A stretch of 32,000 nucleotides of DNA from contig JAIYCG010000048.1 of NCBI GenBank assembly GCA_027488115.1, forward strand, positions 84,763-116,762, read 5' to 3'. The notes beneath the pieces were generated by a model. The model was not told where the DNA came from. It ran no database searches and worked only from the letters and a program-made list of their open reading frames with translations. Of the stretch, positions 3 through 32,000 are shown piece by piece. Position 1 is the first letter of the stretch, and each line of letters opens with the position of its first letter. The translations under genes and the position numbers were made by a program. The stretch is from Comamonadaceae bacterium (GTDB lineage: Bacteria; Pseudomonadota; Gammaproteobacteria; Burkholderiales; Burkholderiaceae_C).

Positions 3-1796
3 GTGGCAACAGAGCGGATGGCCATGGAGGCAGAGTCTACTGTCAATGCCACGCAAGCAGCAGCTTACAGAAGCTTGGCATTGCTTAACCTGAAAAGCGA
101 GAAAGCTTCAAGTTCAGCGGATGTCATGATGGGTCAGCAATTGGCTTCCATGTTGCAATTGATTCAAGAGATTCAAGACTCACCAGATGAAGGTTTGCGT
201 GGCCTGTTTAAGCCCATGAAAGCCTATGAAACCGCTCTGCGTGACGCCTATGACGCCGCCAGTTCAGACACCAACCTAGGTGCCATGATGATGCAAAATG
301 TAGACAAGGCCTTTGACGATTTAAATGAAAAACTGAACAAATTTGAAGCAGCCAGCCGTATTACCGCTAGCAATGCACAAAATGAATTAAACCATCGCAT
401 TAACTTTTTCCAGCAAGTTCAAATGGCATCACTTATGTTGGCTGTGATATTGGGCTTGTTGCTGGCTTACTTTGCAGGACAAAAAATTGCGAATCCCCTG
501 CGAGAAATGCAATTGCAAATCACTGCCATTGAAACCAGTGCTGATTTTTCACAGCGCATCAAGATCCAAAGCCATGACGAAGTCGGCAAAGCCTCGACCT
601 CTTTAAACAGCTTGCTTGAATCATTGCAACGAGCAGTGCAAGAAGTCAATGCCGTGGTGGGCTCGGTGTCGGCAGGCGACTTTAGTCGTCGTGTAGACGC
701 GCCCTTAAAGGGCGATATGGCGGTCATGAAAAAAGCTGTCAATGATTCTGCAGAGAGCATCATGCTAACCATGAATGGCTTGAATGAATTGATGCAGGCC
801 TTGCAGAAAGGTGAGTTTGCCAAACGCGTCAATCTGAAAGTCTCTGGTGAATTTCAACGAGCCCTGACCCAAGCAACAGATGCCATGTATGCACTGAACA
901 GCATGATGAGCGATGTTGGCACGGTGATACAAGGTGTATCCCAAGGCAATTTGAGTTCAAGGGTTCATGCTCAAGGGCATGGTGATTTGCTCACACTCAA
1001 AACAAACATCAATTTATCACTGGATTCATTGAGTGCCTCCATGCGCTTGATCAATCAAAATGCGCGCCAAGTTGCAACAGCTTCCGCTGAGTCCAGCCAG
1101 GCCATCGGTCAGATTTCTGATGGCGCCATGAACCAAACACACGCCATCAGCCAAGTGGCCGCTGCTGTCAGGCAAACAGCGACGTCTGTGACGGATGTGT
1201 CAAGAAATACCGAAGTTGCCAGCCAAAAATCGAAAGAATCTGTTCACTTGGTTCGCGATGGCATTCGCAAAATGAATCACATGGTGGATGTTGTGAACAG
1301 TATTGCTGCCAATTCAGCAAAAATTAACAAGATCACGGAAGTCATTGAAAAGATTGCAAACAAGACCAACTTGCTGTCGCTGAACGCTGCCATTGAAGCA
1401 GCGCGAGCAGGCGAACACGGCAAGGGTTTTGCAGTGGTTGCTGATGAGGTTGGCAAATTGGCCGTCAACAGTGCCGAGAGTTCTCAAGAAATTGCGCAAT
1501 TGGTGCAAAAAGCTGTCGAAGACACTCGACAAGCGGTCGCCGCAGTTCACGAGGTCAGTGCCGACATGGCTCGGATTGAGAGCGGCTCACAAGAAACCGA
1601 TGACATGTTGCAACGCATTGCGTCGGCGCTCGAGCAACAAAGCAGCGCCGTTGAGGAAATCAATGCCAACTTAAGCAGTGTTGACAACATTGCTCGCAGC
1701 AATTCTGCGGCCTCTGAACAAATTACAGCCACTGTGATGGAGTTGTCTAAAATTGCCGATTCGACTCACCGTGAAGTAGAAAAATTCAGACTTTGA
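3..1796 (+). CDS. methyl-accepting chemotaxis protein (N-terminus outside window), TM + poly-HAMP + MCP signalling domain
   Basis: ORF is open from the window edge. It has the MCP hairpin-tip motif [34 protein letters not shown] and one TM segment ([19 protein letters not shown]). Several HAMP-like units follow (GDFSRRV, GEFAKRV, GNLSSRV). Confidence 0.9.
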
Positions 1797-1797
1797 T

Positions 1798-2631
1798 GTG
1801 TCCATGGATCTGACATATTTAGAAACCACACTGCAAAATCTAAGAAAAAAATGGCCTAAGGACTGGCCAGGGTTGGCAGTCGTTCTCAACAGTTCATTGC
1901 AAAAACTAGGCTTCGATGACCGTATCAAGTTGCCGGCAAGAGATCAGGCCATTCATGACTGTATTTTCTCGGTCATCGAAGCCATTGAAAAAGATGGCCG
2001 TCAGCGCGCAAAGCTCAAACTTGAGCCCAGATACCACAACCGACTTCACTTTGCCGACACTGTTGTGGCACTGACAGTGATGCTGGTGAACTTGCGAAAA
2101 GTTTCTGCTCGACCCCAAAGTGAACAACTCAGTCATGAAGAATGGTTAGCGCTGTTAATCATGGTCAGCCATGATTTTTTGCACAACGGTCAAATCAACC
2201 GGTTCCGTTCTGAGATTGAGGCTGTCACGGTCAAGGCCCTCGCCCCTTACATGAAAAAACACAAGGTAAGCGCCACTGATCAGGCGCTGGTCAATGACAT
2301 CATTTTGAAAACAGACCCGGCCTACGTTGCCGAATCTCATCAGCAAATTCAAGGCTTGCCTTTTGATTTGGCTGACCACCGCTGTCTTTTGGTTTTAATT
2401 CAAGAGTGTGATATTTTGGCAAGCTCACTGCCCGATACTGGCAAGACCCTGACACAACAGCTTTCGGAGGAATGGGCCGATGTAGCGCCGGACAAGTCTT
2501 TGGCGCTGTTGCCACCTGCAGGCAGAATTTTTTTCCTAAAGCGCATGGCTTTGTTTTCAAGTCCTGCCAGCCACGCCATAGGCATTCAACACAACATTGC
2601 CCGCCAACTGGCTGACATTGAATTGATCTGA
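1798..2631 (+). CDS. class I-like (eukaryote-type) cyclic-nucleotide phosphodiesterase catalytic-domain protein
   Basis: 277-aa ORF. Its start (GTG 1798 or ATG 1804) lies 1-7 nt after the MCP stop at 1794-1796. Motifs RYHNRLHFADTV, SHDFLHNGQINRF, ILKTDPA and ECDILASS occur in the order and spacing of PDEase_I metal-site motifs (YHNxxHAxDV, HDxxHxGxxNxF, LATD, CADLSNP). Motif recognition only. Confidence 0.7.
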   Translation: MSMDLTYLETTLQNLRKKWPKDWPGLAVVLNSSLQKLGFDDRIKLPARDQAIHDCIFSVIEAIEKDGRQRAKLKLEPRYHNRLHFADTVVALTVMLVNLRKVSARPQSEQLSHEEWLALLIMVSHDFLHNGQINRFRSEIEAVTVKALAPYMKKHKVSATDQALVNDIILKTDPAYVAESHQQIQGLPFDLADHRCLLVLIQECDILASSLPDTGKTLTQQLSEEWADVAPDKSLALLPPAGRIFFLKRMALFSSPASHAIGIQHNIARQLADIELI

Positions 2632-2675
2632 TTCATTTCGATCTCACCTGGCTCACACAGTTGCTACGCTGCGGC

Positions 2676-3518
2676 TTACTGAATCGCTTGAATTTCTTGG
2701 TCGATGGCGGCTTGGATACCCAACGCCTTGGACGCTGGTGAGGAGAACGTGATGATTTTCAGAAACCCCTTGCGACCCGCTGGCGTTGCAACCGTTTTGT
2801 GCGCTACAAAATCAATTTTTTTCCATTCACTGGCTAAGGCTTCACCCATGCCAACTCCAAAGTTGGTAGAGGCGCTGGCCATGACATCGGATTCGTTCAA
2901 AAACACAATGAGCCATTTCAAATCCCATTCAAAAACAGCATTTTTCACAGCCAAGTGATTTTGGGAAACGAGGGCAAAGTCCGATTGAAGAATGCATCGC
3001 TCTACCCATTCGCGCCAGACGCCTTCAACACCACATTCATCCATGATGGGGCGCAACAACTTAACGGAGTAGCTTTCTAGCTCTGACTCAAATTGGTTGA
3101 CACGCCCGTTGTGTCCAAAATCATGGGCTATGCAAGCGAGCAACGCGCAGGCACTCCACTCTGCATTGAAATCTTGGTTCAGTTGCGATTGAATGGCAAT
3201 TTGAACACTGACTGTGGTGATGGCATCTGCAAAGTGCAAGCGGTTGTGATAAAGGGGTTCTGTCTGAAAAATGTCGTTGGCAAAGGACGCTTCAATTTCG
3301 TGGGCCACACGTTCTGCAGCCTTCAGCATCTGCTGTGCAGGCAGTGAGTCTTGATTGCGATCTAAACCAAGGTACCTCACACACTCTTTGAGCACCCAAG
3401 GCAAACCAACCCACTCTCCTTGCCACGAGACCCGCAAAGCAGTGTATGAATTTTCCAAACACTGCATCCAACTCTTTTCATCGCGAATTAAATAGCCAAG
3501 CATAGGAGCAGTCTGCAT
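2676..3518 (-). CDS. class I-like cyclic-nucleotide phosphodiesterase catalytic-domain protein (paralogue)
   Basis: 280-aa ORF with ATG at 3518 and a GAAGGA Shine-Dalgarno about 9 nt upstream. Motifs LYHNRLHFADAI, AHDFGHNGRVNQF, ILQSDFA and ESDVMASA are present. YHN-to-HD spacing is 41 residues versus 40 in mammalian PDE4 as I recall it. Confidence 0.7.
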   Translation of the reverse strand: MQTAPMLGYLIRDEKSWMQCLENSYTALRVSWQGEWVGLPWVLKECVRYLGLDRNQDSLPAQQMLKAAERVAHEIEASFANDIFQTEPLYHNRLHFADAITTVSVQIAIQSQLNQDFNAEWSACALLACIAHDFGHNGRVNQFESELESYSVKLLRPIMDECGVEGVWREWVERCILQSDFALVSQNHLAVKNAVFEWDLKWLIVFLNESDVMASASTNFGVGMGEALASEWKKIDFVAHKTVATPAGRKGFLKIITFSSPASKALGIQAAIDQEIQAIQ

Positions 3519-3585
3519 GAAGCTGGTCCTTCTATGGCGTCAGACGCAATGAAATAAGAAAATTTTTCACGGAAATGTGATCTTC

Positions 3586-3933
3586 TTATTTGCTGTATTT
3601 GATGGCATTGGCCATGGCTTGTTGAAGCAAGAGTCCCTCCATGATGACAACCAGCAATGGCGAATAACTGATAAGCAATTCTCTGGCTTGATCGTTGCCA
3701 ATGACCTTGCAGACCGCGTCGGTCTTGGCCCTGATCGATGCAGCTCGTATGCCGCCTTTTAAAATGGCAGCTTCACCAAACGACTGCCCTTCAGGAATCA
3801 CAGCAAATGCATCACCCGATGCGCTGACCAACTCAACGCTACCCTGTTGCAAAAAATACAGGTGTGTTGCTTGGTCACCTACTTTGCAAATGAATTGACC
3901 CGCTTCAAATGTCTCTGTTTTGAAATCGCTCAA
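3586..3933 (-). CDS. stand-alone cyclic-nucleotide-binding (CAP/PKA-type) domain protein, 115 aa
   Basis: TTG start at 3933 with AGAGGTG Shine-Dalgarno 6 nt upstream. The sequence FEAGQFICKVGDQATHLYFLQQGSVELV...GQSFGEAAILKGGIRAASIRAKTDAV is a canonical cNMP-binding beta-barrel with phosphate-binding cassette (FGE...RAA). No other domain is present. Confidence 0.75.
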   Translation of the reverse strand: MSDFKTETFEAGQFICKVGDQATHLYFLQQGSVELVSASGDAFAVIPEGQSFGEAAILKGGIRAASIRAKTDAVCKVIGNDQARELLISYSPLLVVIMEGLLLQQAMANAIKYSK

Positions 3934-3943
3934 GTTACACCTC

Positions 3944-4411
3944 TTATGGAGTCAGAATGCGCTTGATGATGGTGGCCAAAATGGCCCTCACCTCTGATGG
4001 AAGCACGTTGATGATGGAGTCCACTTTATGGAAATCAATGATCTTGAGTTGTATGGAGGTAGCAGCAACCGCTGTGTAACGTGAAGGCAAACCCACCATG
4101 CCTTCAGACAAACCCAGAACCGCACCTGGCCCAACGGTGTAAGTTTTGTTTTTGTGCGTAATTTGAACCTCACCACTCACAATGAAAAAACCTTCCTCGA
4201 ATTGCTCACCGGCTCGGATTAACACCTTGTGTGGCAAGAACATGGTTGCATTGAGCAGGGGGGTGCTAAGCATCGCCACATAGAGCCGCTCCTCGCCTTT
4301 GAACTGTCCAGATTGGATGGCCTGCATCCCCTCTTGAGAGTTCAAAAAGTTGACTCCCAATTTGTTTAATTTTTCGTTATCAACTGCAAAAACTGGTCCG
4401 TTGCTTGACAT
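3944..4411 (-). CDS. stand-alone cyclic-nucleotide-binding domain protein, 155 aa
   Basis: The segment LIRAGEQFEEGFFIVSGEVQI...GPGAVLGLSEGMVGLPSRYTAVAATS fits the cNMP-binding fold with a slightly diverged phosphate-binding cassette (LSE...RYTA). It sits 10 nt upstream of the 115-aa CNB gene on the same strand, so an operon is likely. Confidence 0.65.
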   Translation of the reverse strand: MSSNGPVFAVDNEKLNKLGVNFLNSQEGMQAIQSGQFKGEERLYVAMLSTPLLNATMFLPHKVLIRAGEQFEEGFFIVSGEVQITHKNKTYTVGPGAVLGLSEGMVGLPSRYTAVAATSIQLKIIDFHKVDSIINVLPSEVRAILATIIKRILTP

Positions 4412-4663
4412 TCATAAACCTTTGGTAATAACTGAGCCTGAGGCTGCGTCCTTGTCTGCGACATTTTCGACAATTCTAATCGTTGAATTTATATTCCTGG
4501 AGGATGCAGATTGATTTATGTATGGCATTAAAATCCAAGCTTCTCTGCAGGTTGACATTGAGCACTCCCCCCCCACACCTTCAACCTATTCCACGCTGGA
4601 TTTGGTTTCTGTTTTTAGGTTGGTTGGTTTACACCTTCGCTGCCATGGGTTGGTATTTCGTCA

Positions 4664-6553
4664 ATGACCCTGTTTTCATGGGCAGTTTTTGCAGGTCACC
4701 CTAAAATGAGCTTGAGCGTTCAACATCCCGGTTCCAATCACGAAGATGAAATCTTGCAGCCACAACGCGCTGCAGCAGACAGAGTCATGCTGAGCATGAT
4801 GGTTTTCCTGTTGTTGGTTTGCTTTGTATGCGCCTACTTCACCAGCACCTGGACATTGACTGCAGCCATTGGACTGCCATCTCTGTTGGTGCCATGGGCC
4901 ATTTACAAAAGCGCTCCAGGATCTTTGGCTTCAAGAATAGCCATTGCCTGTGCCTTGATGGTTTTTTCAGCGCTCAACATTCAACAAAGCCAGGGAATGA
5001 TAGAGAGTCATTTTGGCATCTTCACACTGCTTGCTTTTTTACTCTACTACCGAGATTGGCGCACCATTGTGGCTGCGGCCGGTCTGATTGCAGTTCATCA
5101 TTTGTTGTTTGGTTATTTACAAGCACAGCAAATGGCGGGCATCACTGTCATTGAAGGGCAAGTTCACATTGGCACCATCGTTTTGCATGCTGCCTATGTT
5201 GTTTTTGAAGCGGCCGTTTTAATCTTCATGGCCACTATTTTGCGCAGAGAAGCTGTTGAGTCTGCATTGGTTGCAGAACTTTCTAGTCAAATCAGCCATG
5301 GCGATTTTTCAGTTCGAGGCAAACCTGTCAATGCCGCCGAATCACCGCTCCTGTTCAAAGTATCGCAAATGCAACAATCATTGCAGTCCACGCTACAAGA
5401 CATTGTGAGCGTCATGACCGCCGTTGCCCAAGGTCACCTTGATCGGCGCGTGACGGTAGCTGCCAAAGGCGATTTGGGCGCCCTGAAAGAAAACATCAAT
5501 CAAAGCATACAAGTTCAGCAATCTGTGTTCCAAGATATCACCCACGTCATGCAAGGTGTGGCCAACGGCAACTTTACACTGCGTGTGACTGCTGAGGCCA
5601 AAGGTGAGCTGAACATATTGAAGCAAAATATCAATCAAAGCATGGCGGCCCAGCAAACAGTATTCCAAGACATCACGCATGTGATGCAGGGTGTTTCACA
5701 AGGCAATTTGCAAAGACGAGTCGTTGCACAAGCCCTGGGCGAACTCGACCAACTTAAACAAAATATCAATCAATCCTTGGATGAGCTGCGAAATGCCATG
5801 ACCACCATTCACGGCAACGCAAGGCAAGTGGCTGCGGCATCAGGAGAGGCCTCCAATGCCATTGGACAAATTTCCGATGGTGCCCGTTCACAAACCGATG
5901 CCATCAGCCAAGTCTCTAATGCTGTTCGACAAACAGTCACTTCGGTTTCTGAAGTTTCGCAAAATACCGAGTTGGCAAGTCAGAAATCTCGTCAGTCATT
6001 TGTTTTGGTTCGCGCCAGCATGGCCAAAATGGACGAAATGGTCAAAGTCGTTAACAACATTGCTTCCAACTCAGAAAAGATCAACAAGATCACCGATGTC
6101 ATTGAAAAAATTGCCAACAAAACCAACCTGTTGTCTTTGAATGCGGCCATCGAGGCAGCACGTGCTGGCGAACATGGCAAAGGCTTTGCGGTAGTTGCCG
6201 ACGAAGTGGGCAAGTTGGCTTTGAACAGCGCGGAGAGTTCACAAGAAATTGCCATTTTGGTTCAGCAAGCTGTCGAAGAAGCTCGCAGTGCCGTGACTGC
6301 AGTTGGAGATGTCAGCAAAGACATGTTGGGCATCGAACGTGAAACCCAAGCTACCGATGAAATGCTGCAACGCATTGCAGCTTCACTAGAAGCCCAAGGT
6401 ACAGCCGTAGAGCAAATAAACTCTAACTTGAACAATTTAGATCAAATTGCACAAAGCAACGCTGCCGCATCTGAGGAAATTGCAGCCACTGTTGTTGAAC
6501 TTTCTAAAATTGCAGATGCAACCCAACGCGAAGTGCAACGATTCCAAACCTGA
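4664..6553 (+). CDS. methyl-accepting chemotaxis protein with polytopic His-rich N-terminal membrane domain and tandem HAMP units
   Basis: MCP tip motif [34 protein letters not shown] is present. About 200 aa of N-terminal transmembrane segments precede three 45-aa HAMP-like repeats. ATG 4706 (MSLSVQ...) is an alternative start; neither start has a clear SD. Confidence 0.9.
5390..5800 (+). repeat. three in-frame tandem 135-nt (45-aa) HAMP-like units inside the MCP gene
   Basis: The QD(I)(V/T) anchor codons recur at 5396, 5531 and 5666, an exact 135-nt period. Units 2 and 3 share [12 protein letters not shown] and LKQNINQS. Confidence 0.8.
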
Positions 6554-6592
6554 TGACCAACGGACACACCCATATCCGTTAGGGCTTTGACA

Positions 6593-8566
6593 TTAGATCT
6601 TGAACTTTTCAACCTCGTTGCGAGTGGCATCGGCCACACGAGAGAGTTCCATGACAGTTGCCATGATTTCATCTGATGCGGAGGCATTGTTGTCTGCAAT
6701 TTTGTCCAAGCTGCCTACGTTGGCATTGATCTCCTCAACGGCTGCGCTTTGTTGCTCCATGGCAGCCGAGATGCGATCTAGCATGCCATCGGTTGCATTG
6801 GCACTGACCTCGATGTTGCGCATGTCCTCGGCAACTTGCCTCACGGTTTCCACGGCTCGAGCTGACTCAGTAGCAGCTTCATGAACCAACAGTGTAATTT
6901 GTTGGGCACTTTCAGCGCTGCTGCTGGCCAACTTACCAACCTCTTCGGCTACCACAGAGAAGCCCTTGCCATGTTCACCTGCTCTGGCTGCCTCAATGGC
7001 TGCATTCAATGACAAAAGATTTGTTTTGTTCGCAATGCTTTCAATCACTTCGGTAATTTTGTTGATCTTTTGAGAGTTGGCTGCAATGCTGTTGACCACC
7101 TCAATCATGATGCCCATTTTGCTTTGACCACTCTTCACCAAATCAATGGACGCGCGAGACTTGATGCTGGCTTCTGCCGTGTTTCGGGCAACATCCATCA
7201 CGGCCGCTGTGGTTTGCGTGAGCGCAGCCAAAACCTGCCTCATGGCAAGTTTTTGGTTTTGCGCACCGTCGGAAATTTGTCCTATTGCCGTTGTAAATTC
7301 GTTTGCAGCAGTGGCAACCTGGCGTGTATTCAAATGAATCGCTTTCATGCTGCCCGCCAAAGCGTACAAAGACGTGTTGAGGTTTTCTTTGAGGACAGCA
7401 AGTTCGCCGCGTCCTTCTCCTTCAACACGAACGGTTAAATTGCTTTGAGAAACACTTTGCATCACGTTGCCAATTTCCCCCAACATTCTTTGCAAAGCGC
7501 TCATGGCCATAGTAGCTTGGTCTAGGGCCTGCTTGAACTCGCCTTTGCCTTGCGCATTGGACTGCACATCAAATTGGCCGTTGTACAAGGCCAACATGAC
7601 TTTGTTCAAACCGCGCATGGTGGTTTGAATGCCGTCTGCGCTTTCATTGACGGCGCTCTTCATGCGCAACAAGTCGCCCTTTAGATCTGAGTGAACACGA
7701 CCCGAGAAATCACCCTCAGCCATTTTCACTGCGACTGAACTGACCTCTGAAATGGCCTTGTCTTGAGCATCCAACATGGCATTGAATGATTTGGCCATCA
7801 AGCCAATTTCATCACCTGATTGAATCAGCACACGTTGCTTGAAATTACCTTTGGATTCAATATCCTCAATGGCAGATTGCAACTGACCAACGGGTTTGAC
7901 AATGGTGCTTGTAACCCAGTAACTGACATAGGCACCTAGCAACAAACCTATGCCCCCCCCAAGCAACAAGGCATTGCGCGATTGGGTGCTGCCATGAACT
8001 ATGGCGTCGGCCATGGCATTGGCTTCGTCCACTTGCTCTTGCCTTAATTCATTCAGTACATCACCCAAAGCACTGCTGCGTTTGTCGAAGTCTTCCATCA
8101 GAACATTGCCAGCTTCAATGCCTTTGCTGATGTAAATCTCGGTCATTTTTTTACCGAGGTCATAGAATGCATCGAAGTTTTGATCGATTTCTGCCAATTT
8201 TTTCAACGCGACAGCATCTTGTTCACTTTCAAACATGGCGCGGAATTTGGCAATATTTTTCTTGAAGTCTTGGGCGTACTTATCAGCTTCACCAAAACTG
8301 TCGCGATTGTGAGTGGCTGCAGCATCTTGCAAAAATTGCTGGACCTGTACGACATCCAAAACCATTTGATCAGCTGTCAAAGCAAAGGGCAAGCTTTCCC
8401 GCTGAATTTGCTGCGCAGCCTGAAGGGCCTCTTTTTGAAAATACAAAACAACCGACATTGCGGCCAAAAAAACGCAAATCACAAGGCCAAAGCCTGCAGT
8501 GAGGCGTGAACCTATTTTGAGATTGCTCAGCAATTTAGAACATCCATTTGAAGCCAAGTGTGACAA
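6593..8566 (-). CDS. methyl-accepting chemotaxis protein (TM, periplasmic helical sensor, TM, poly-HAMP, MCP domain)
   Basis: Tip motif [34 protein letters not shown] and two TM segments ([38 protein letters not shown]) are present. The annotated start overlaps the upstream OMP gene by 32 nt, so the true start may lie a few codons downstream (TTG/CTG). Confidence 0.9.
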
Positions 8567-9194
8567 TGTTTTGTTTGTTTGTGCGGCCTACACTGGTGTC
8601 CAACTGCAGGTCGTCCATGACGTTGAAACGAAAGCCAGTGGCAACAGTAGGTTTCTCGTGTTCCAAGCCGAATTTTTCAATGTGAACAGTCACAGGACCG
8701 TAGGCACGTTCCCAAGCCACGCCCCATGTACGCACTCTTTTTGAACTGGAAACGTTAAGCGCACCCACATTGGTATGCAAGCTACCCAACGTGGCGTTAT
8801 TACAAGTAAACAGGCCATTGATGTACGGCTTGGATGACTCGCCATCTGTTTGGGCATAACCCGCCACAGTGCCAAAATTGCAAGCGTTTTCTTGGGTAGG
8901 CGTGATTCTAAATTTGACCTGGATGTTTTGAGTTTGAATGCCCGTCCTTTGCTCGCGGGCAATTCCGGCACTCAGTTCTAGGTTGTCTACTGGGGCATAG
9001 GCTGGTGCAATCGTCCAAGAACGAACACCGCTTGGTGACCTGGTCCACCAGGCTTCTACATGCCCATCACCCGTGTCATTGACGTTGGCATCGTCAACTG
9101 TCAGCGGCCGACCTGCAAAGCTTGAGGTACTGACGAAGAGCGCCATCAAGACAACAAACGCAAAAGAGATGGGGGATAAAGATTTTGAGAACAC
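8535..9194 (-). CDS. outer-membrane beta-barrel protein (phenol-degradation MetA-like family?)
   Basis: It has a signal peptide ([18 protein letters not shown]) followed by GRPLTVDDA. Alternating beta-strand patterning runs through the protein, with a C-terminal aromatic residue (GFKWMF). GTG start with no clear SD. Confidence 0.55.
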
Positions 9195-9286
9195 GGGAAG
9201 AAAAAATTAATTGCAATATTTAGAGATTAACGCAATTTCAAATGGATTTTGAAACTTTGGCTAGATTTTGGAGTTAGCCGAGCGCT

Positions 9287-10624
9287 TTAATTTTTCAGCG
9301 AAACAGAAGTCAATGATGGATGGTCAATGCTTTGACGCTTTGATGCTTGCATTGCAAGAAGTTGACCTCGTTGCACATTAACCGGCATCAGCAACAGCCA
9401 GCCCAGCAAAAACAGACTTGTGGTGGCTGCAATGGCCAATCGCTGATTGCCATCGGTCAACCACGCAATGAGGCCAAAGCCCATCGGTCCCAAAATACTG
9501 GCTAAACGAATTGCAAATGCCCACAGACCAAAGAATTCAGCCAGGCGGTGGCTTGGAATGAACAAGGCAGCCATGGCCCTGCCCGTTGACTGACTGGAAC
9601 CCATGCATACGCCAGCCAATACAGCAGCCCACCAAAACATTTCTTTGCTGGTACTTAAGGCCGCCAAAACACAAGTAATGCCCCAGCCCCACAATGTGAG
9701 CGACAAAGCCAATTTATGGCCAATTCGGTCTTGGGCATAGCCCAAAACCAAGGAGCCAATGAGGGCAGCGATATTCAGTACAAAAATAAGCACCATGGTT
9801 TCTTGAGGCTGAAAACCAATGACCTGCTCTGCATAAATTGCCGCCAAGGTAATAGCAACGGCCACACCGCCCTGGTAAGCAACGGCACAAACCAACAATT
9901 GCATGAAGTCTTTGTAATTTTTTGCCTCTCTGAACGTCTGAACCAGTTGCTGCCATTTTCCACCCCCAGCGGGACGCGTCACTTGAGCTTGGGCATGTTC
10001 TTTGAGGAGCGCGAAAGTGACGCAAGCGGACAGTGCATAAATGGCGGCGGTCAATAGCATGGTGAAAGGCACAAACTCTCTCGCTGTTTGTCCTTGCGCC
10101 TGTGCATACAAAACATAGCCAAGGCAAAGGCCCAAGGTCAACATACCGCCGAGGTAGCCCCATGCCCACCCCCAGGCGCTGATTCGCCCCATGGCTTCTG
10201 GTTTAGCCAACTCTGGCAAGAATGCGGCGCTCAACGATTCGCCATAGGTATAAAAGCTGTTAGAAATAACGATAAAAACCAATGCCAAAAGAACCTCGCC
10301 AGGACCCACCCAAGCCAAGGCCGCAGTACTCAACACACACGCAGCAGTGACCGCCATTAAGAGCTTCTTTTTTGCAGCATGCCGATCGGCCCATTCGCCC
10401 ATGGCTGGCATGGTGAGCATGACAATGGCATATGAAAAACTGAGGGCGCTGGTCCAAGCCAAAGTAGCCCATTCGGCATTGTTGGCGACAGCACCTACAA
10501 AATAAGCTGCAAAAACGGCTGTGATGACAACGGTGGTGTAACCTGAATTGGCAAAGTCATACATGGCCCAAGCAAATACCTCCCTGCGCTTGACGCCAGG
10601 ATTGAGCATTTGATTGAAGCCCAT
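9287..10624 (-). CDS. MFS transporter, UMF1/Atg22-like family
   Basis: 445 aa with about 12 TM segments. The N-terminal motif KRREVFAWAMYDFANSGYTTVV is typical of the UMF1 family. Confidence 0.8.
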   Translation of the reverse strand: MGFNQMLNPGVKRREVFAWAMYDFANSGYTTVVITAVFAAYFVGAVANNAEWATLAWTSALSFSYAIVMLTMPAMGEWADRHAAKKKLLMAVTAACVLSTAALAWVGPGEVLLALVFIVISNSFYTYGESLSAAFLPELAKPEAMGRISAWGWAWGYLGGMLTLGLCLGYVLYAQAQGQTAREFVPFTMLLTAAIYALSACVTFALLKEHAQAQVTRPAGGGKWQQLVQTFREAKNYKDFMQLLVCAVAYQGGVAVAITLAAIYAEQVIGFQPQETMVLIFVLNIAALIGSLVLGYAQDRIGHKLALSLTLWGWGITCVLAALSTSKEMFWWAAVLAGVCMGSSQSTGRAMAALFIPSHRLAEFFGLWAFAIRLASILGPMGFGLIAWLTDGNQRLAIAATTSLFLLGWLLLMPVNVQRGQLLAMQASKRQSIDHPSLTSVSLKN

Positions 10625-10651
10625 AGAAGGTCCGCAGGTAAAGGTGATTTG

Positions 10652-11281
10652 TTAGTGCAAATGGCGAGGTCTGCGACCGCCACCGTGGCCGCCTTGTGGT
10701 CCACCACCACTGCCGCGAGGCGGTTTACCTAATTCGAGGGAACTGACCAAATCGTTAAAGCGTTCAGAGAACAACTTGTCGATTTCTTGAACCACGCCGC
10801 TCAGTTCGGAGCCGTCAAAATGGCGCTCCATAAGACCCACCACATCTTGAACCAGCAAATCGCGTTGGGCTTGCATGATGGCAGCAGGATCGGGACCAAC
10901 AAAGACGATTAAAAAGTCGTCTCGAGACTCGGAGCCGCGTGATTCATCTTCATCGTCAAACTCTGCGTCGTAAAAGGTAATTTCCAATTGGGCGCCGGCT
11001 GCTGAAACTTCGTTGAGGTTCATACAAAGATCGTCTAGCACTTGGCGGAAATCTTCGTCGCCTCGGGCTGTCCAACAAAGCTGGAGTTTGTGTTCTGCGG
11101 CTTCAAAACGAATGCCGGGCTCTTCTTCGTAAAGGCTTTGAGCGCCCTCGGTGAGGGATTTGGCGCCTGCATATTTCCAAAGGGGCCTGGTGGCTTCTTG
11201 AAGGGCTTTGAAATCCACGTCGTCTCGCAACAGGATTTCACCATGAACATGAATTTCAAGAGGTGCGCTGAAGGATGTCAT
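10652..11281 (-). CDS. hypothetical acidic protein with C-terminal Gly/Arg-rich tail
   Basis: 209-aa ORF with coding-like composition. I recognise no family. It has an acidic core (DAEFDDEDESRGSESRDD) and the tail PPRGSGGGPQGGHGGGRRPRHLH. It starts 18 nt after the tRNA-Leu 3' end. Confidence 0.55.
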   Translation of the reverse strand: MTSFSAPLEIHVHGEILLRDDVDFKALQEATRPLWKYAGAKSLTEGAQSLYEEEPGIRFEAAEHKLQLCWTARGDEDFRQVLDDLCMNLNEVSAAGAQLEITFYDAEFDDEDESRGSESRDDFLIVFVGPDPAAIMQAQRDLLVQDVVGLMERHFDGSELSGVVQEIDKLFSERFNDLVSSLELGKPPRGSGGGPQGGHGGGRRPRHLH

Positions 11282-11299
11282 GGCGGTCTACTTAGTCGA

Positions 11300-11393
11300 T
11301 GGTGCCCCGAGCCGGAATCGAACCGGCACGCCCGTTATTCACGAAAGCGGCGGATTTTAAGTCCGATGTGTCTACCAATTTCACCACCGGGGC
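11300..11393 (-). tRNA. tRNA-Leu (anticodon UAA), class II with long variable arm, CCA encoded
   Basis: The minus-strand read is GCCCCGG..GGUAGACAC..UCGGA-CUUAAAA-UCCGC..GCCGG-UUCGAUU-CCGGC-UCGGGGC-A-CCA. The acceptor stem is 7 bp including one G-U, the T-arm is canonical and the anticodon loop is CU-UAA-AA. At 94 nt it is long for tRNA-Leu (about 22-nt variable region). Confidence 0.85.
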
Positions 11394-11434
11394 TAAAGCT
11401 CTATTGTGCCTTCAAGTTGAGCTTTTTTAAAATA

Positions 11435-11458
11435 AAAAGCCCTCATTAGAGGGCTTTT
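11435..11458. terminator. rho-independent terminator hairpin (AAAAGCCCTC-ATTA-GAGGGCTTTT)
   Basis: Perfect 10-bp stem with a 4-nt loop and A/T runs on both sides. On the minus strand it lies 45 nt after the small ORF and just upstream of tRNA-Leu. Confidence 0.6.
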
Positions 11459-11502
11459 ATTGAGACCAAAGTGGAAGCTCTGAGCTCAATGGTCTCAAGG
11501 AC

Positions 11503-11673
11503 TTAGCCGCCTTTTTTGGCACGCTTTCCAGGATTTTTCTTGCTGCGTGTTGCGACGCCGCGCTCTAAACTCACACGCTGACCGCGGCCAGTTGTTGGCA
11601 ATGTGACGCCAGGCAATGCCTTTAAGGGCGGTGTGTATTTGCGATCAGCTTCGGTAACAATCTTATTGCCCAT
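11503..11673 (-). CDS. small basic hypothetical protein, 56 aa (below the ORF-track cutoff)
   Basis: ATG at 11673 is preceded by GGAG 7 nt upstream. It translates as MGNKIVTEADRKYTPPLKALPGVTLPTTGRGQRVSLERGVATRSKKNPGKRAKKGG and is followed by the 11435-11458 terminator. Confidence 0.4.
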   Translation of the reverse strand: MGNKIVTEADRKYTPPLKALPGVTLPTTGRGQRVSLERGVATRSKKNPGKRAKKGG

Positions 11674-11755
11674 CAGTGGCTCCAGGAAAAAAAGTTCAAG
11701 GCGATATTAAGCCACAGATTCAAGGCGCCTCAGACTGCACACCCCAAATTAGGTC

Positions 11756-27768: not shown

Positions 27769-27800
27769 ACTTTCTAAATTGATTGAACGAGAATCACACG

Positions 27801-28955
27801 ATGACTATCGACAGAAGAAAATGGTTTGTAGGCGCTTCGTCATTGCTCCTTTCAAAAGCACTGTTGGCACAATCAGACGGTGCGCATGGCTCACAGGGTC
27901 ATCATGGCGCTCACCCGGCTCTTCCAAAGGCAAATCCTTCTTCTGAGCCTTACGCCAGACTACAAGGTGGCGTGCCGCACCACTTAACCGCCGATCAAGA
28001 ATCTCAACGCTCTATCAGCAGCCCTGCACCAAAGGGCCCTGCAGGTCGTTGGATCACAAGGGCTTCATTGCCAATTCCCCGCAGTGAAATGGCATGGGCC
28101 ACAGAATGGGCAGGCAGACTTCACGTTATTGGCGGCTATGGAGAAGGACGCGTCGACAGGGGCTACCACCATGTCTACGAACCCAAAGCAGATCAATGGC
28201 ATTTGGCGGCTCCACTGCCTCGTGGCGCCAACCATGTTGCCGTGGTATCCCTAGAGGGTCGCATTTACGCGTTTGGCGGTTTTATTGAACAAAATAGAAA
28301 TCCAGACAACCATGCTTATGTTTACGAAGTTTCGCAAGACAAGTGGACCTCGATTGCACCCCTGCCAAGACCCAGAGGTGCGGCTGCCGCGGTTGCATTG
28401 AATGGCAAACTGCACCTGATTGGCGGCGCTTCGTCGCCAACAGATGAACGTGCAAGCGTGGGTTGGCATGAAGTCTATGACCCCAAATCAGACCAATGGA
28501 CTCGCAAGAAAGCCCTGCCTGGTGCTCGCGACCATGTGGGCTGTGTGGCTTACAAAGGCAGAATTCACATCATTGGTGGGCGCTTCAACACCTTTGAATA
28601 CAACACCGATTTGCACCAGGTGTACCTACCCGAAAGAGACACTTGGGAGCTCTTGGCGCCATTACCAACAGCGCGTTCTGGGCACGGCTTGGTGATCTAC
28701 CGTGATCGTTTTTACGCCATGGGCGGTGAAGGTGGCATCATCAACAAACCCGGTCAACAAACCGTGTTTGGGCAAATGGAAAGTTACGACCCCGCCAGCA
28801 ACACTTGGCAATCACATGCCCCCATGCCTATTCCGCGTCATGCGGTAGGTGCAGTGACGATTGGTGATTGGATTTATGTGGCTGGGGGTGGCGCAGTGTT
28901 AGGCGGCAGTGTTCAATCTGCTGTGCACGAGGCCTTTACGCTGAGTGGTGTTTGA
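27801..28955 (+). CDS. Kelch-repeat beta-propeller protein with Tat-type signal
   Basis: Leader MTIDRRKWFVGASSLLLSKALLAQS. A repeated unit of the type G(R/K)(L/I)(H/Y)xxGG...YDPxxDxW occurs about six times. Confidence 0.75.
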   Translation: MTIDRRKWFVGASSLLLSKALLAQSDGAHGSQGHHGAHPALPKANPSSEPYARLQGGVPHHLTADQESQRSISSPAPKGPAGRWITRASLPIPRSEMAWATEWAGRLHVIGGYGEGRVDRGYHHVYEPKADQWHLAAPLPRGANHVAVVSLEGRIYAFGGFIEQNRNPDNHAYVYEVSQDKWTSIAPLPRPRGAAAAVALNGKLHLIGGASSPTDERASVGWHEVYDPKSDQWTRKKALPGARDHVGCVAYKGRIHIIGGRFNTFEYNTDLHQVYLPERDTWELLAPLPTARSGHGLVIYRDRFYAMGGEGGIINKPGQQTVFGQMESYDPASNTWQSHAPMPIPRHAVGAVTIGDWIYVAGGGAVLGGSVQSAVHEAFTLSGV

Positions 28956-28989: not shown

Positions 28990-29018
28990 CAGCCCTCAAG
29001 CTTGGGGATTGAGGGCTG
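28990..29018. terminator. bidirectional rho-independent terminator (CAGCCCTCA-N11-TGAGGGCTG)
   Basis: 9-bp GC-rich stem. On the minus strand it is followed by TTTTTTGAT immediately after the tRNA-Cys 3' end. On the plus strand it follows the Kelch gene. Confidence 0.7.
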
Positions 29019-29023
29019 TGATT

Positions 29024-29067
29024 TGGAGGCGCGGGCCGGAGTCGAACCGACCTACACGGATTTGCAA
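29024..29067 (-). other. orphan 3' half of tRNA-Cys(GCA): putative att junction of an integrated element
   Basis: The minus-strand read is UUGCAAA-UCCGU-GUAG-GUCGG-UUCGACU-CCGGC-CCGCGCC-U-CCA. That covers the anticodon loop, 3' anticodon stem, variable loop, T-arm, 3' acceptor strand, discriminator and CCA. In the next ~150 nt I found no 5' acceptor strand (CCGCGCC on the plus strand), and I did not see a D-arm or 5' anticodon-stem strand. Confidence 0.8.
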
Positions 29068-29094
29068 ACACGGTAACACCACGCTGTTAAACCC

Positions 29095-29180
29095 TGCAAC
29101 AACAACTTGCAACATCCTACGCACACGGTGTGCACAAACTGCAAAACGTAACTGCAACGTACTTGCAAAAAGTGTGCAAC
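29095..29180. repeat. array of seven TGCA(A/C)(A/C) motifs, including three tandem 11-nt units, next to the att junction
   Basis: TGCA occurs at 29095, 29108, 29131, 29140, 29153, 29164 and 29175. The tandem units are ACGTAACTGCA, ACGTACTTGCA and AAAAGTGTGCA at 29146-29178. Confidence 0.6.
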
Positions 29181-29227
29181 GTGTTTTACTGGAAACAGAT
29201 TTAACAAACAGCGTGTAATAGCGGCAA

Positions 29228-29416
29228 CTACGTTTGAATTTTGCGTAAACGCTCTGCATCACGCAGTTGACGCTGTCTGTCACGTTCTGCTTGCAGTTGT
29301 TTCCTGCCATTCTCGATGTTAAGTTGCAAACTTTTGACACGCTGTTGTGCAGGTGTTGTCGGCTTGATTGCTTTAATCGGTTTAATGTCTTCTTGTGTAA
29401 TGTCTTTGATACGCAT
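29228..29416 (-). CDS. small Lys/Arg/Gln-rich hypothetical protein, 62 aa
   Basis: MRIKDITQEDIKPIKAIKPTTPAQQRVKSLQLNIENGRKQLQAERDRQRQLRDAERLRKIQT. This is the internal ATG of the 107-aa track ORF. The upstream part of that ORF overlaps the 146-aa gene and looks non-coding. No SD is evident. Confidence 0.35.
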   Translation of the reverse strand: MRIKDITQEDIKPIKAIKPTTPAQQRVKSLQLNIENGRKQLQAERDRQRQLRDAERLRKIQT

Positions 29417-29453
29417 AACGTATTTACACAAACGAAAACAACTGCAGTTGCAA

Positions 29454-29894
29454 TCATCGCTTAAATCCTGCACGCAATTTTGCACCTGCCGACACAATTT
29501 GCTCGTCAAGTTCGCCTGCAACAACTGCATCTTGCACAACTGTAAGTGCATTTACAAGTTCCGACATGTTTGCAACTTCAATTGCGTTTGCACCTTTTGC
29601 ATTTAGTGCAATAACAGTTGCACCATAACGTACGCTGAATGCAATTTTTCCGTTTTCTTGTTTCCACCACCATGTACGCAACTTTTTCGGCACGTTTGTG
29701 TATGCAGAAACACCTTCGCTGTCAGTTGTTTTGCGTTTACGCATAACACTGAACATTTTTCCTTCTGCAATTGCACGTGCATTTTGCAATTGCTCATCCA
29801 AACGCAATAACAATTTATTTCTGCGTTGTACAGCAACTGGCAATTGAGTTGTGCGCTTTGCAGTGATGAATTTAAGTGTACTTAAAGTAGCCAT
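29454..29894 (-). CDS. hypothetical protein, 146 aa (island cargo)
   Basis: ATG at 29894 with GGAG 8 nt upstream. The composition is protein-like (MATLSTLKFITAKRTTQLPVAVQRRNKLLLRLDEQLQ...GELDEQIVSAGAKLRAGFKR). I believe similar proteins occur in proteobacterial islands and plasmids, but I cannot verify this. Confidence 0.65.
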   Translation of the reverse strand: MATLSTLKFITAKRTTQLPVAVQRRNKLLLRLDEQLQNARAIAEGKMFSVMRKRKTTDSEGVSAYTNVPKKLRTWWWKQENGKIAFSVRYGATVIALNAKGANAIEVANMSELVNALTVVQDAVVAGELDEQIVSAGAKLRAGFKR

Positions 29895-29926
29895 TTATTA
29901 CTCCGGTTTGTTGTGTTGAGTAATAA
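29895..29926 (-). promoter_or_regulatory. leader hairpin overlapping the Shine-Dalgarno of the 146-aa gene
   Basis: TTATTACTC (29895-29903) pairs with GAGTAATAA (29918-29926), a 9-bp perfect inverted repeat. On the mRNA the 3' arm GAGUAAUAA abuts the AUG and contains three of the four SD bases. Confidence 0.35.
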
Positions 29927-30593
29927 CTGTAGTTTCGAACAATTGGTTTGGACAACCGGAATTTGTCGGTTTGGGCAATCTGTCCAAAACACCTAATAAA
30001 ACACAGTTTTGTGCAACATATTCTTTAGTCAAGACTAAATAACTGTATGAACTACAAAGCAGACTATCAAACAAACAAGTGGATTTCGGACAATGGAATG
30101 GATACAAAGACATTCAGCATCACACATCCAAAATTACTCAAAGCACAAATGGCTGCCAACACACTACTCAAACATCACCAAAACTTATTGTCACAACACC
30201 AAACTACAGCACTGAAGAAATTCGCATCCAATATGGCACACAAGAACACCAGAACCAAACTCAAACCAAATTCAGCAATTCCTATTCTCAATATTTCGGC
30301 ACAAATCAATCGCAAACTTTTCGCTCTGGCTAAACTAATCAAATAACTTACATACAAATGCAGGATACATCACCTGCTTAAAAAAGGATTAAAACGCGGG
30401 TTGGAATATGACGGCTAATGACCCCGCACTTGCACTACGTCGCTGTAAAGATGTTTTGCGTATAAGTGGATGCCGCTGGATTGCTGTTATGCAAATCAAT
30501 GCAGAAACAGTTTGGAAGTTCTAATTCGACCGTCTTCTGTCAAATCCTTTTACAGTCGTTGCACGTCATACTGAATCAGTTGTAGCAACGAAA

Positions 30594-30636
30594 GCGACGA
30601 CTATGTTGACTTCGCAAGATGTCACATAGCCGTCGT
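30594..30636. repeat. long imperfect hairpin / palindrome in the ORF-poor region
   Basis: GCGACGACTATGTTGAC-TTCGCAAGAT-GTCACATAGCCGTCGT gives 14 Watson-Crick pairs plus 1 G-U, with one bulge, one mismatch and a 10-nt loop. Confidence 0.6.
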
Positions 30637-31176
30637 TTGTCTCCAAAATCAGTCTTACAAAATACAAGTGATATGTATCAACATAATTGTCAGTAATTAA
30701 TCATCTTGATGTTGAAAATTACACTTGAAACAGTGAATTGAAATAAATGTGATGAGTTGTGCTCTGAAGCGAAGCGTAAGAAGCAAACGAAATCACTTGC
30801 GAACGACGAGTTCGCAGACACAAGATGAAACATCTTTTTACACAAATGAACTGTCACGATTAAAACAACTGCAAATGCATCAAATCACGTGCACAAGCAA
30901 TTAATTTGCAATTAACTACACAGACTGCACGATTGCAAAACAAACGCTTGTAGACGTTTTTACACAATCAACGCAGTCTATTGCAGTTTTCGCACAGAAA
31001 CTGCAGATATTTCCAATAAATACATGACCAAAGAGAATACACAAACTCAGCAGTCATGCAGATAAGTGCTTGATATTGAACAAATCACCAATACACCGCC
31101 AAGTTGATGGGTTTTACTTGTCCACTCTGCATCAAAGAACACATACTTAAACAACACAAATTAATAGGAGATACAA

Positions 31177-31749
31177 ATGGCAACAGCAAAATCACTTACA
31201 TCAGCAGAAATTAGCAAAGTACTGGACTACATTGCAATAAATCCAAATGCACAACGCAATCGCGTAATGTTTATGTTCACAGTTCTTGCAGGACTGCGTG
31301 TCAGCGAAGTTGCTGACTTGAAAATTGGTGATGTACGCAACGCAGATGGCACAATTAAAAGTGAGATTTACTTAAGCGGTGCACGTGTTAAACACAATCA
31401 CGCTCGTACTGTGTTTGTCAGCACACGTTTGCAAGACGAAATTACCAATTACATCAGTACGAAAGTAGTATTGAGTGATGCACAGCCGTTGTTCAGCACA
31501 AATCGCGGTGCGAGACACGCATTTAGTGCAAATACACTTACACAACACTTCCATTACATGTACAAAAGATGCTCAATCGCATCAGGTTCGTCACATTCAG
31601 GCAGAAAGACGTTCATTACTTCGCTTGCCAGTCAGGGAATTAGTGTATTTGTGCTTGCAAGTTTGGCGGGGCACAAATCCATAAGCACTACACAAAGATA
31701 TGTTTCGGTAAATGACGACATGAAACGACGTGCTGTCGAACTTGTTTAA
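31177..31749 (+). CDS. small tyrosine recombinase (catalytic domain only, FimB/FimE-sized, 190 aa)
   Basis: AGGAG lies 6 nt upstream of the ATG. The catalytic set is R in AGLRVSEV, H-x-x-R in HSGRKTF, H in LAGHKS and Y in TTQRYVSV. Only about 40 aa precede the first catalytic Arg. Confidence 0.85.
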   Translation: MATAKSLTSAEISKVLDYIAINPNAQRNRVMFMFTVLAGLRVSEVADLKIGDVRNADGTIKSEIYLSGARVKHNHARTVFVSTRLQDEITNYISTKVVLSDAQPLFSTNRGARHAFSANTLTQHFHYMYKRCSIASGSSHSGRKTFITSLASQGISVFVLASLAGHKSISTTQRYVSVNDDMKRRAVELV

Positions 31750-32000
31750 TTATCGCGAAGTGAACGGAGGAATTTAAACTGCTTATCAAGTCGATTTTTC
31801 TGTTCTTCTGTAAATTCGACAACTTCTTCAACAATCGTGTTCTCATATGTCAGTTCAAAAGCGGCTTCTACAAGTGCGTGCAACTGACATTCGCGTTTTT
31901 TCAATCGCGAACTTAACTTTGGCAATCCTGTGTCAAGTGCATTAATACTTTTACTACCGCGAACGCGTGGCACGCCAACACAATCAATCGAGTGCGTCAT
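31746..32000 (-). CDS. hypothetical protein (may extend beyond the window)
   Basis: The ORF converges on the recombinase gene and their stop codons overlap. An ATG sits exactly at the window edge (31998-32000), so completeness is unknown. I recognise no family. Confidence 0.35.
   Translation of the reverse strand: MTHSIDCVGVPRVRGSKSINALDTGLPKLSSRLKKRECQLHALVEAAFELTYENTIVEEVVEFTEEQKNRLDKQFKFLRSLRDN

Follow-up and report, generated by a model that had tools for sequence, protein, structure and literature searches.

Class I cyclic-nucleotide phosphodiesterases (PDEs) are placed in eukaryotes, and the removal of cyclic AMP (cAMP) in bacteria is assigned to enzymes of classes II and III (PMC4320098, PMC4222275, PMC8115329). 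PdeA and PdeB of M. xanthus, which we considered as a known bacterial example of class I, were rejected as such: they belong to class III (PMC4222275). Here we analyse a 32,000-nucleotide stretch of a Comamonadaceae genome (assembly GCA_027488115.1, contig JAIYCG010000048.1, positions 84,763-116,762), hereafter the window. It encodes two proteins, PDE-A (window positions 1798-2631, plus strand, 277 amino acids) and PDE-B (2676-3518, minus strand, 280 amino acids), each a minimal cyclic-nucleotide phosphodiesterase that is class-I-like in fold and catalytic machinery. Next to them stand genes for two cyclic-nucleotide-binding (CNB) proteins, CNB1 and CNB2, and for chemoreceptors of the methyl-accepting chemotaxis protein (MCP) type. 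We propose, with a probability of roughly 70%, that these genes belong to a module for cAMP synthesis, degradation and reception, which here serves a Wsp-like chemosensory pathway as its output.

The Wsp pathway of Pseudomonas belongs to the alternative cellular function (ACF) class of chemosensory systems, and its output is WspR, a receiver (REC) domain fused to a GGDEF domain. A chemosensory (Che) operon that carries the PDE family is built alike. In a Limnohabitans metagenome-assembled genome (NZ_JAFEIF010000042; positions 2424-11683 of our locus L072), nine overlapping genes on the same strand read CheA-CheW-MCP-CheR-CheB-REC-AC-PDE-CNB2-CNB1, where REC-AC is a receiver-fused adenylyl cyclase (AC): as in Wsp, a receiver-fused nucleotide cyclase follows a complete set of Che genes (CheA, CheW, MCP, CheR and CheB) in one operon, so that input at the chemoreceptors would set the level of a second messenger. 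The messenger differs, being cyclic di-GMP (c-di-GMP) in Wsp and predicted cAMP here, and the operon described here additionally encodes a PDE of its own along with two receptor-like proteins. A further difference from Wsp is that the genes of the window genome are split over several transcription units.

Chemosensory control of cAMP is also found in the Pil-Chp system of P. aeruginosa (with CyaB, CpdA, Vfr and CbpA), where a cAMP-binding protein without DNA-binding output, CbpA, exists as well (PMC11139211). Its cyclase, however, has no receiver and lies outside the Che operon; cAMP is degraded there by a class III metallophosphoesterase and sensed mainly by a transcription factor of the CRP type, whereas single-domain CNB proteins occur here. 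The streptophyte CAPE protein (COMBINED AC with PDE; PMC8115329) joins a class III cyclase with a class I-type PDE, and a bacterial fusion described below, P0207, is its direct analogue. CAPE is eukaryotic and has its PDE N-terminal to the cyclase; in the bacterial family described here the order is cyclase then PDE, the genes are usually separate, and the unit includes a receiver on the cyclase and two CNB proteins. Finally, the class III (CpdA, Rv0805) and class II (CpdP) enzymes share with PDE-A and PDE-B the presumed job of removing cAMP, but have a metallophosphoesterase beta-alpha sandwich or a metallo-beta-lactamase-like fold instead of the all-alpha HD-type fold (PMC4320098, PMC4222275). 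In the literature that could be searched, which is incomplete, we found no account of class I PDEs in bacteria and none of a REC-AC as the output of a Che pathway.

We searched the six-frame translation of the window with a PROSITE-type class I signature, H-D-[LIVMFY]-x-H-x-[AG]-x(2)-[NQ]-x-[LIVMFY]. It occurs exactly twice, as HDFLHNGQINRF at 2170-2205 on the plus strand (PDE-A) and as HDFGHNGRVNQF at 3090-3125 on the minus strand (PDE-B), and in none of 200 shuffles of the window. PDE-A carries, besides HDFLHNGQINRF, the motifs YHNRLH, ILKTD, ECDILAS and GRIFFL. The distance from YHN to HD is 46 in PDE-A and 42 in PDE-B, against 41 in human PDE4D2. A preliminary description of this DNA, made from the sequence, had reported the reading frames, the class I motifs, the signature in both proteins and a PDE4-like spacing; the frames lie exactly where it put them, every motif that it quoted is present in the translations, and the signature and spacing hold. 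The two paralogues are 34% identical to each other (E 1e-46).

Profile comparisons place both proteins with class I PDEs. PDE-B matches the Pfam model PF00233 (PDEase_I) at 32.9 bits, above the gathering cut-off of 24.8, and in precomputed annotations PF00233 is present on most PDE-B-type homologues, so that automated Pfam labels already flag this type; PDE-A-type homologues carry no Pfam annotation. The HD, HD-GYP and generic HD models (PF01966, PF13487) match neither protein at E<=1, and no better assignment to a rival family of the HD superfamily scored. An NCBIfam scan gave nothing for PDE-A, PDE-B or CNB2, and phmmer of PDE-A alone found no match among Protein Data Bank (PDB) entries. With a 23-sequence family profile, 148 distinct PDB sequences were matched (best E 4.9e-6), and the 60 matches listed are all class I PDEs. 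A second, weaker stretch of this search aligned ILxxD and ExDxxAS of the family with ILATD and TACDLSA of PDE5, which places the distal metal Asp. Against a single PDE4D2 sequence, hhalign recovered only the H...HD core and a larger family profile was needed: with 135 sequences, the alignment to PDE4D2 reached 95% probability (E 3e-8). The PDE4D2 reference sequence was verified as identical to PDB 1OYN.

The fold agrees with these profiles. An AlphaFold (AF2) model of PDE-B, with a predicted local distance difference test score (pLDDT) of 91.1 and a predicted template-modelling score (pTM) of 0.91, has 14 helices. In a Foldseek search with this model, every one of the top 50 matches is a class I PDE catalytic domain at probability 1.00, with template-modelling (TM) scores of 0.50-0.67 over about 300 columns, that is, over the full length. 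The best matches are PDEC1 of T. cruzi (TcrPDEC1), PDE1B, PDE10A and PDE4B. Pfam (for PDE-B), the PDB profile search, hhalign and the fold search thus agree on a class I relationship. The preliminary description had called the proteins eukaryote-type: the relationship stands, and the label is better replaced by class-I-like, as they form a deeply divergent, compact bacterial clade.

The alignment of the 135-sequence profile allowed us to map the active site. Residues Y90, H91, H95, D98, H132, D133, H136, N141, E148 and D180 of PDE-B align confidently with Y159, H160, H164, D167, H200, D201, H204, N209, E230 and D272 of PDE4D2, respectively; under permissive settings, D211 aligns with D318, R249 with Q369 and F252 with F372. 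The zinc ligands of class I PDEs are the equivalents of H164, H200, D201 and D318 (PMC13095499), and the corresponding H95, H132, D133 and D211 are the predicted metal ligands of PDE-B. Its predicted general acid is H91, and H136, E148 and D180 are predicted to support the metal site. Among 135 family representatives, H132, D133, H136 and E148 are kept in all, and H91, H95 and D211 in 133. In the penultimate helix, where the alignment is of low confidence, R249 is found in 122 and F252 in 129 of the representatives; judged by this alignment, the Phe clamp appears to be conserved in the family. The R249 codon lies at window 2772-2774, and an equivalent Arg is present in PDE-A too.

Compared with eukaryotic class I PDEs (PDE1-11 and the kinetoplastid enzymes; PF00233, PS00126), the bacterial proteins have the same all-helical fold, the YHN...H general acid and ligand, the HDxxH...N signature at equal spacing, the supporting Glu, the ILxxD motif, an xxDxxxS helix that carries the distal metal Asp and, probably, the Phe clamp. 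They are, in contrast, some 50-60 residues shorter, with 14 helices instead of 16, and they have no long H8 region or M-loop and only a short C-terminus. The regulatory domains that eukaryotic enzymes carry in cis (GAF, upstream conserved region (UCR), PAS or calmodulin (CaM)-binding) are absent, and the bacterial proteins are encoded in operons.

When 1.84 billion cluster representatives were searched exhaustively with a profile, 726 proved to be members of the PDE family at E<=1e-3, of which 123 pass E<=1e-30; almost all have lengths of 270-300 amino acids. In 185,579 reference species the family has 173 loci, and the best 80 of these belong almost all to freshwater Burkholderiales/Comamonadaceae (Limnohabitans, Rhodoferax, Polaromonas, Hydrogenophaga). 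One carrier is an isolate, Limnohabitans sp. 2KL-17. The homologues are named 'hypothetical protein' in their source records and, in one case, 'cyclic nucleotide phosphodiesterase'. The family is a compact (about 280 amino acids), deeply divergent (about 15% identity), mainly Burkholderiales clade. It does not look like a recent eukaryotic import, and is best read as a sister family, in bacteria, of the class I (PDE1-11-type) phosphodiesterases.

Two outliers were seen in the family. The first is a distant member that also touches the HD-CE model. The second, P0251 (415-1548 of a 2.5-kb metagenome contig), is a predicted protein of 377 amino acids in which the N-terminal half of the PDE family is joined to a HECT ubiquitin-ligase domain; it may be a chimera of assembly or gene calling, or an effector directed at eukaryotes.

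PDE-B is the last gene of an operon on the minus strand, in which it follows CNB2 (3944-4411, 155 amino acids) and CNB1 (3586-3933, 115 amino acids). Only 10 nucleotides separate CNB2 from CNB1. The gap between CNB1 and PDE-B is of 67 nucleotides: no terminator was predicted in it, and a Shine-Dalgarno sequence, GAAGGA, precedes PDE-B. Both CNB proteins pass the PF00027 gathering threshold of 27.5 bits, CNB1 with 64.4 and CNB2 with 35.4, and neither has an output domain; they are, as was first described, single cyclic-nucleotide-binding domains standing alone.

CNB1 consists of a beta-barrel with a C-terminal helix and little more. Its phosphate-binding cassette, FGEAAILKGGIRAAS (FGE...RAAS), is canonical and aligns with the sites at which PKA-R and PKG bind cAMP and cGMP; across 69 orthologues, conservation of the FGE and of the Arg is 95% or more. 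CNB1 has R-A-A like the cAMP sites of PKA-R, and its best-scoring PDB matches are PKG domains. From its cassette, we predict CNB1 to be a cAMP receptor. The AF2 model of CNB2 (pLDDT 78.7) shows a complete CNB fold with additional N-terminal helices, and its top Foldseek matches are the CNB domains of HCN, PKA-R, PKG and MloK1. Relative to MloK1, the cassette Glu is changed to Leu and the Arg to Ser. Where the window protein has 'SRY', the consensus of its orthologues at the 80 reference-genome loci has 'SNK', and the Arg is not conserved among them; among the closer relatives aligned (52-94% identity), this R111 is invariant. CNB2 is probably a degenerate partner of CNB1 and not a second receptor.

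To find what accompanies the PDE in other genomes, we ran tblastn with the proteins of the window and of L002, an overlapping locus that extends to the left of the window, over the best 80 of the 173 family loci. A tight, same-strand CNB2-CNB1-PDE arrangement is present in 51 of the 80, with a cyclase directly upstream in 16 of those 51. Twelve loci have PDE-CNB2-CNB1, all but one of them (11/12) with a REC-cyclase directly upstream of the PDE; the full order REC-AC-PDE-CNB2-CNB1 recurs in about 11 loci besides L072. Where at least 1.5 kb of flank is available on both sides, an adjacent CNB pair is found in 46 of 56 loci, so that the CNB-CNB-PDE operon noted in the window is a conserved one. 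With at least 5 kb on both sides, 25 of 29 loci have the CNB pair and 21 of 29 a cyclase catalytic domain. No GGDEF, cGAS or DAC genes were found in the family loci. The PDE family thus has its universal partners in the cyclase and the CNB pair and not in MCPs, and two PDE paralogues side by side occur only in close relatives of the window.

A natural fusion ties the cyclase to the PDE in a single chain. P0207, a protein of 669 amino acids from a 5.4-kb metagenome contig (ERZ22067504), consists of REC, class III cyclase and PDE; a CheB gene lies upstream of it, and genes for a CNB2-like protein (158 amino acids) and then a CNB1-like protein (116 amino acids) lie downstream. A distant family member adjoins a CHASE2-cyclase.

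The preliminary description had noted that there is no nucleotide cyclase in the window. Searched by tblastn, the window indeed has none; a cognate predicted adenylyl cyclase lies just outside its left edge. Base 1 of the window is position 8198 of L002, and a REC-adenylyl cyclase of 392 amino acids is encoded at 3642-4820 of L002, 3.4-4.6 kb from the window edge. Its EKIKTIGD and YDLWGDTVNVASR stretches hold the Lys/Asp substrate pair, both metal Asp, and the catalytic Asn and Arg (residue set DKDDNR: two metal Asp, Lys, Asp, transition-state Asn, Arg), and its best PDB matches are mammalian AC5/8/9 and mycobacterial Cya. We predict it to be a class III adenylyl cyclase. Aligned with E. coli CheY, its receiver keeps all five expected positions: the DD acidic pair, the acceptor Asp, the Ser and the Lys.

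The same specificity residues were read in 45 cyclases linked to the family. The first specificity position is Lys in 39 of them, paired with Asp (19), Thr (18) or Ala (2); in the remaining six, this position is Thr, Gln or a gap. The Glu/Cys-type signature of guanylyl cyclases was found in 0 of the 45, and the hypothesis of a guanylyl cyclase making cGMP is unsupported. The Lys-type residues point to cAMP as the predicted messenger.

In the window genome the genes are arranged as CheR, triple CheW, MCP, PAS, REC-AC, REC; then MCP, sCache, MCP, PDE-A; then PDE-B, CNB1, CNB2; and then MCP, MCP. The local REC-AC is 57-60% identical to REC-ACs that lie inside complete Che operons. PDE-A follows the MCP gene at its left almost without a gap: the TGA stop occupies 1794-1796 and the candidate starts are GTG at 1798 and ATG at 1804, 1-7 nucleotides downstream. 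The ATG would give a protein of 275 amino acids, which is the form found in databases (P0121). The translational coupling that had been suggested for this pair is consistent with the 1-7-nucleotide junction, which is kept in all close relatives; MCP-PDE adjacency is limited to these and does not extend across the family. That MCP gene (3-1796, plus strand) is the last one in the MCP-sCache-MCP-PDE-A string. A cyclic-nucleotide branch attached to chemoreceptor signalling, as first envisaged, gains support from the complete Che operons of relatives and from the CheR, triple-CheW, MCP and REC-AC genes beside the window.

Two neighbouring genes of L002 deserve a separate description. On the minus strand, at 180-1562, left of the window, a protein of 460 amino acids beside CheR and an MCP has three CheW-like domains only; it is an unusual scaffold of the chemosensory array. 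Within 5522-9993, the gene string that PDE-A closes includes, between two MCPs of 647 amino acids, a small secreted sCache_2/dCache_2 protein of 165 amino acids, which may be a separate ligand-binding partner for them.

On the observed homology, fold, residue conservation, gene linkage, fusion and cyclase specificity residues we build the following scheme, in which we infer the activity and substrate of the PDEs, phosphotransfer from CheA and the role of the CNB proteins. Input at the chemoreceptors would reach a CheA-type kinase, which would phosphorylate REC-AC and so raise cAMP. PDE-A and PDE-B are predicted to hydrolyse 3',5'-cAMP to 5'-AMP at their two-metal HD site; they would remove cAMP and reset the signal. 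CNB1 would sense cAMP and act with CNB2 on a target, for which the PDE itself is a candidate: the invariant tight operon makes it an attractive one. The module is probably wired to chemosensory genes in the window genome, and in some other genomes too.

A more far-reaching version of this scheme joins three proposals, and as a whole we consider it doubtful. In it, the line from chemoreceptors through CheA and REC-AC to cAMP would be a new chemosensory output with its own turnover and readout. A hetero-complex of the CNB proteins would bind the minimal PDE and make its activity dependent on cAMP, as an equivalent in trans of the eukaryotic GAF and UCR modules and as a second, messenger-level adaptation loop. 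The family of about 280 amino acids would also be the prokaryotic stock that gave rise to the class I PDEs of eukaryotes, and not the result of a transfer from eukaryotes to bacteria.

A number of observations weigh against our proposal of a cAMP module under chemosensory control. PDE-A stays below the PF00233 cut-off, at 21.5 bits; the PF00233 matches of both PDEs are limited to profile positions 1-60 of 238; and PDE-B is just 13-17% identical to solved PDEs, an identity that also sets the family apart from the eukaryotic enzymes. The purine-recognising Gln, invariant in class I PDEs, tentatively appears to be replaced by the near-invariant Arg R249, which might reflect another way of recognising the base; owing to the low alignment confidence around R249, substrate specificity is not readable from the sequence. 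The phosphate-binding cassette of CNB2 looks degenerate, and CNB2 may not bind cAMP. Only 7 of the 29 loci with at least 5 kb of flank on both sides have an MCP. In the window genome itself, neither CheA nor CheB was seen within the 10 kb available, and the PDE-B operon is transcribed apart from the Che genes.

Some of these points would suit a PDE that has the same fold and metal site and acts on another substrate: cGMP, another 3',5'-cyclic nucleotide, a 2',3'-cyclic nucleotide or a cyclic dinucleotide. Arg frequently reads the O6 and N7 of guanine, and at the Gln 'switch' of these PDEs there is, tentatively, a conserved Arg. PKG domains are the best-scoring PDB matches of CNB1, and bacterial PDE classes are hard to assign from sequence (PMC4222275). 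Such a substrate nonetheless seems distinctly unlikely to us: the guanylyl signature is absent from all 45 linked cyclases, 39 of which have Lys with Asp, Thr or Ala, the R-A-A of CNB1 resembles the cAMP sites of PKA-R, the loci have no GGDEF, cGAS or DAC genes, and no HD-GYP or generic HD model matches the PDEs. It is very improbable that PDE-A, PDE-B or both are non-catalytic, or are generic HD-superfamily hydrolases with a superficial likeness to cyclic-nucleotide PDEs. This would agree with the single-sequence similarity being confined to the H-x3-H...HD core, with the failure of PDE-A alone to match the PDB and with the distant member touching HD-CE, but it sits badly with full-length fold matches that are exclusively to class I PDEs, with the aligned downstream Asp motifs, with the strong conservation of every catalytic residue and with the tight linkage, once as a fusion, to adenylyl cyclases, as well as the linkage to CNB proteins.

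The remaining alternatives concern what the module does. It could be a true cAMP module that lies among MCP genes by accident and is not a chemoreceptor output here. MCP genes are numerous in such genomes, and the family has an MCP in 15 of the 80 loci (7 of 29 with at least 5 kb of flank); most members sit in CNB2-CNB1-PDE or AC-CNB2-CNB1-PDE operons, whose cyclases have no REC, and the missing sight of CheA and CheB near the window points the same way. We still hold an accidental placement to be unlikely, as the local cyclase is of the REC-AC type found in Che operons (57-60% identity) and is flanked by CheR, the triple-CheW protein and six MCP genes, as PDE-A begins 1-7 nucleotides after an MCP stop in all close relatives, and as the REC-AC-PDE fusion directly follows CheB. 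A role of cyclase, CNB proteins and PDE in phage defence or counter-defence of the Pycsar/CBASS type is hardly credible. PADLOC gave weak matches of CNB1 and CNB2 to the CNB domains of Pycsar effectors and of the cyclase to PycC; these are at the level of domains only, the CNB proteins have no TIR, transmembrane or other killing domain, the PDEs match no PADLOC defence model, and the cyclase has a purine (ATP) Lys/Asp signature and a receiver and occurs inside Che operons. We therefore rejected defence as a candidate function, and retain the cAMP module under chemosensory control.

The other genes around the module are chemoreceptors. All three MCPs of the window have MCPsignal and HAMP domains in Pfam. 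The first, at 3-1796 on the plus strand, is cut at its 5' end by the window start; it is listed with 597 amino acids (MCPsignal 122 bits) and has 647 in full (L002 8050-9993). The second lies at 4664-6553 on the plus strand (629 amino acids, MCPsignal 115 bits, with HAMP repeats), and the third at 6593-8566 on the minus strand (657 amino acids as listed, MCPsignal 116 bits). From the gene arrangement only, the intergenic region at 4412-4663, from which the CNB2 operon and the second MCP gene diverge, is presumed to hold the promoters of both; scans for promoter consensus sequences in it did not rise above chance, and promoter and terminator scans alike gave no more than shuffles did and carry no weight here. 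In the third MCP gene, about 785 bp (window 7098-7884) are missing from L002, which is otherwise 99.5% identical by blastn. This indel splits the L002 gene into fragments of 151 and 207 amino acids; in other strains the protein has 629 or 646. The HAMP-repeat region of this MCP seems to be a hot spot of strain-level indels.

Elsewhere in the window, we noted three features. An open reading frame at 8535-9194 on the minus strand encodes 219 amino acids, of which the N-terminus resembles a signal peptide and the C-terminus reads ...GFKWMF; it had no match in our Pfam scan, an orthologue is listed under PF27733 (UCP029691) in precomputed tables, and its product is possibly a small outer-membrane beta-barrel protein. 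At 27783-28955 on the plus strand, a Kelch-repeat beta-propeller protein of 390 amino acids is encoded beside a TctC-family receptor, with no tie to the PDE module; Kelch propellers are uncommon in bacteria. Towards the right end, at 29000-32000, the G+C content falls from about 0.50 to 0.38-0.43 and a gene of the phage-integrase family is found at 31177-31749; a mobile island probably has its edge here. The low-G+C end adjoins no tRNA, the sole tRNA of the window being a tRNA-Leu at 11300-11393.

If our proposal is true, these proteins would add a fourth route of cAMP turnover in bacteria, with a class I fold and an intact catalytic site, linked to adenylyl cyclases, in some cases by fusion, and to proteins that resemble cAMP receptors. 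They would give structural and evolutionary studies a minimal, regulator-free form of a fold that is a major drug target, and would bear on the origin of the eukaryotic PDEs. The system is testable, as Limnohabitans sp. 2KL-17, a cultured strain, carries the module. Che operons that end in REC-AC-PDE-CNB-CNB would suggest that chemosensory arrays can directly drive signalling through cAMP, in the way that Wsp drives signalling through c-di-GMP, in hosts that are abundant freshwater Comamonadaceae (Limnohabitans, Rhodoferax, Polaromonas).

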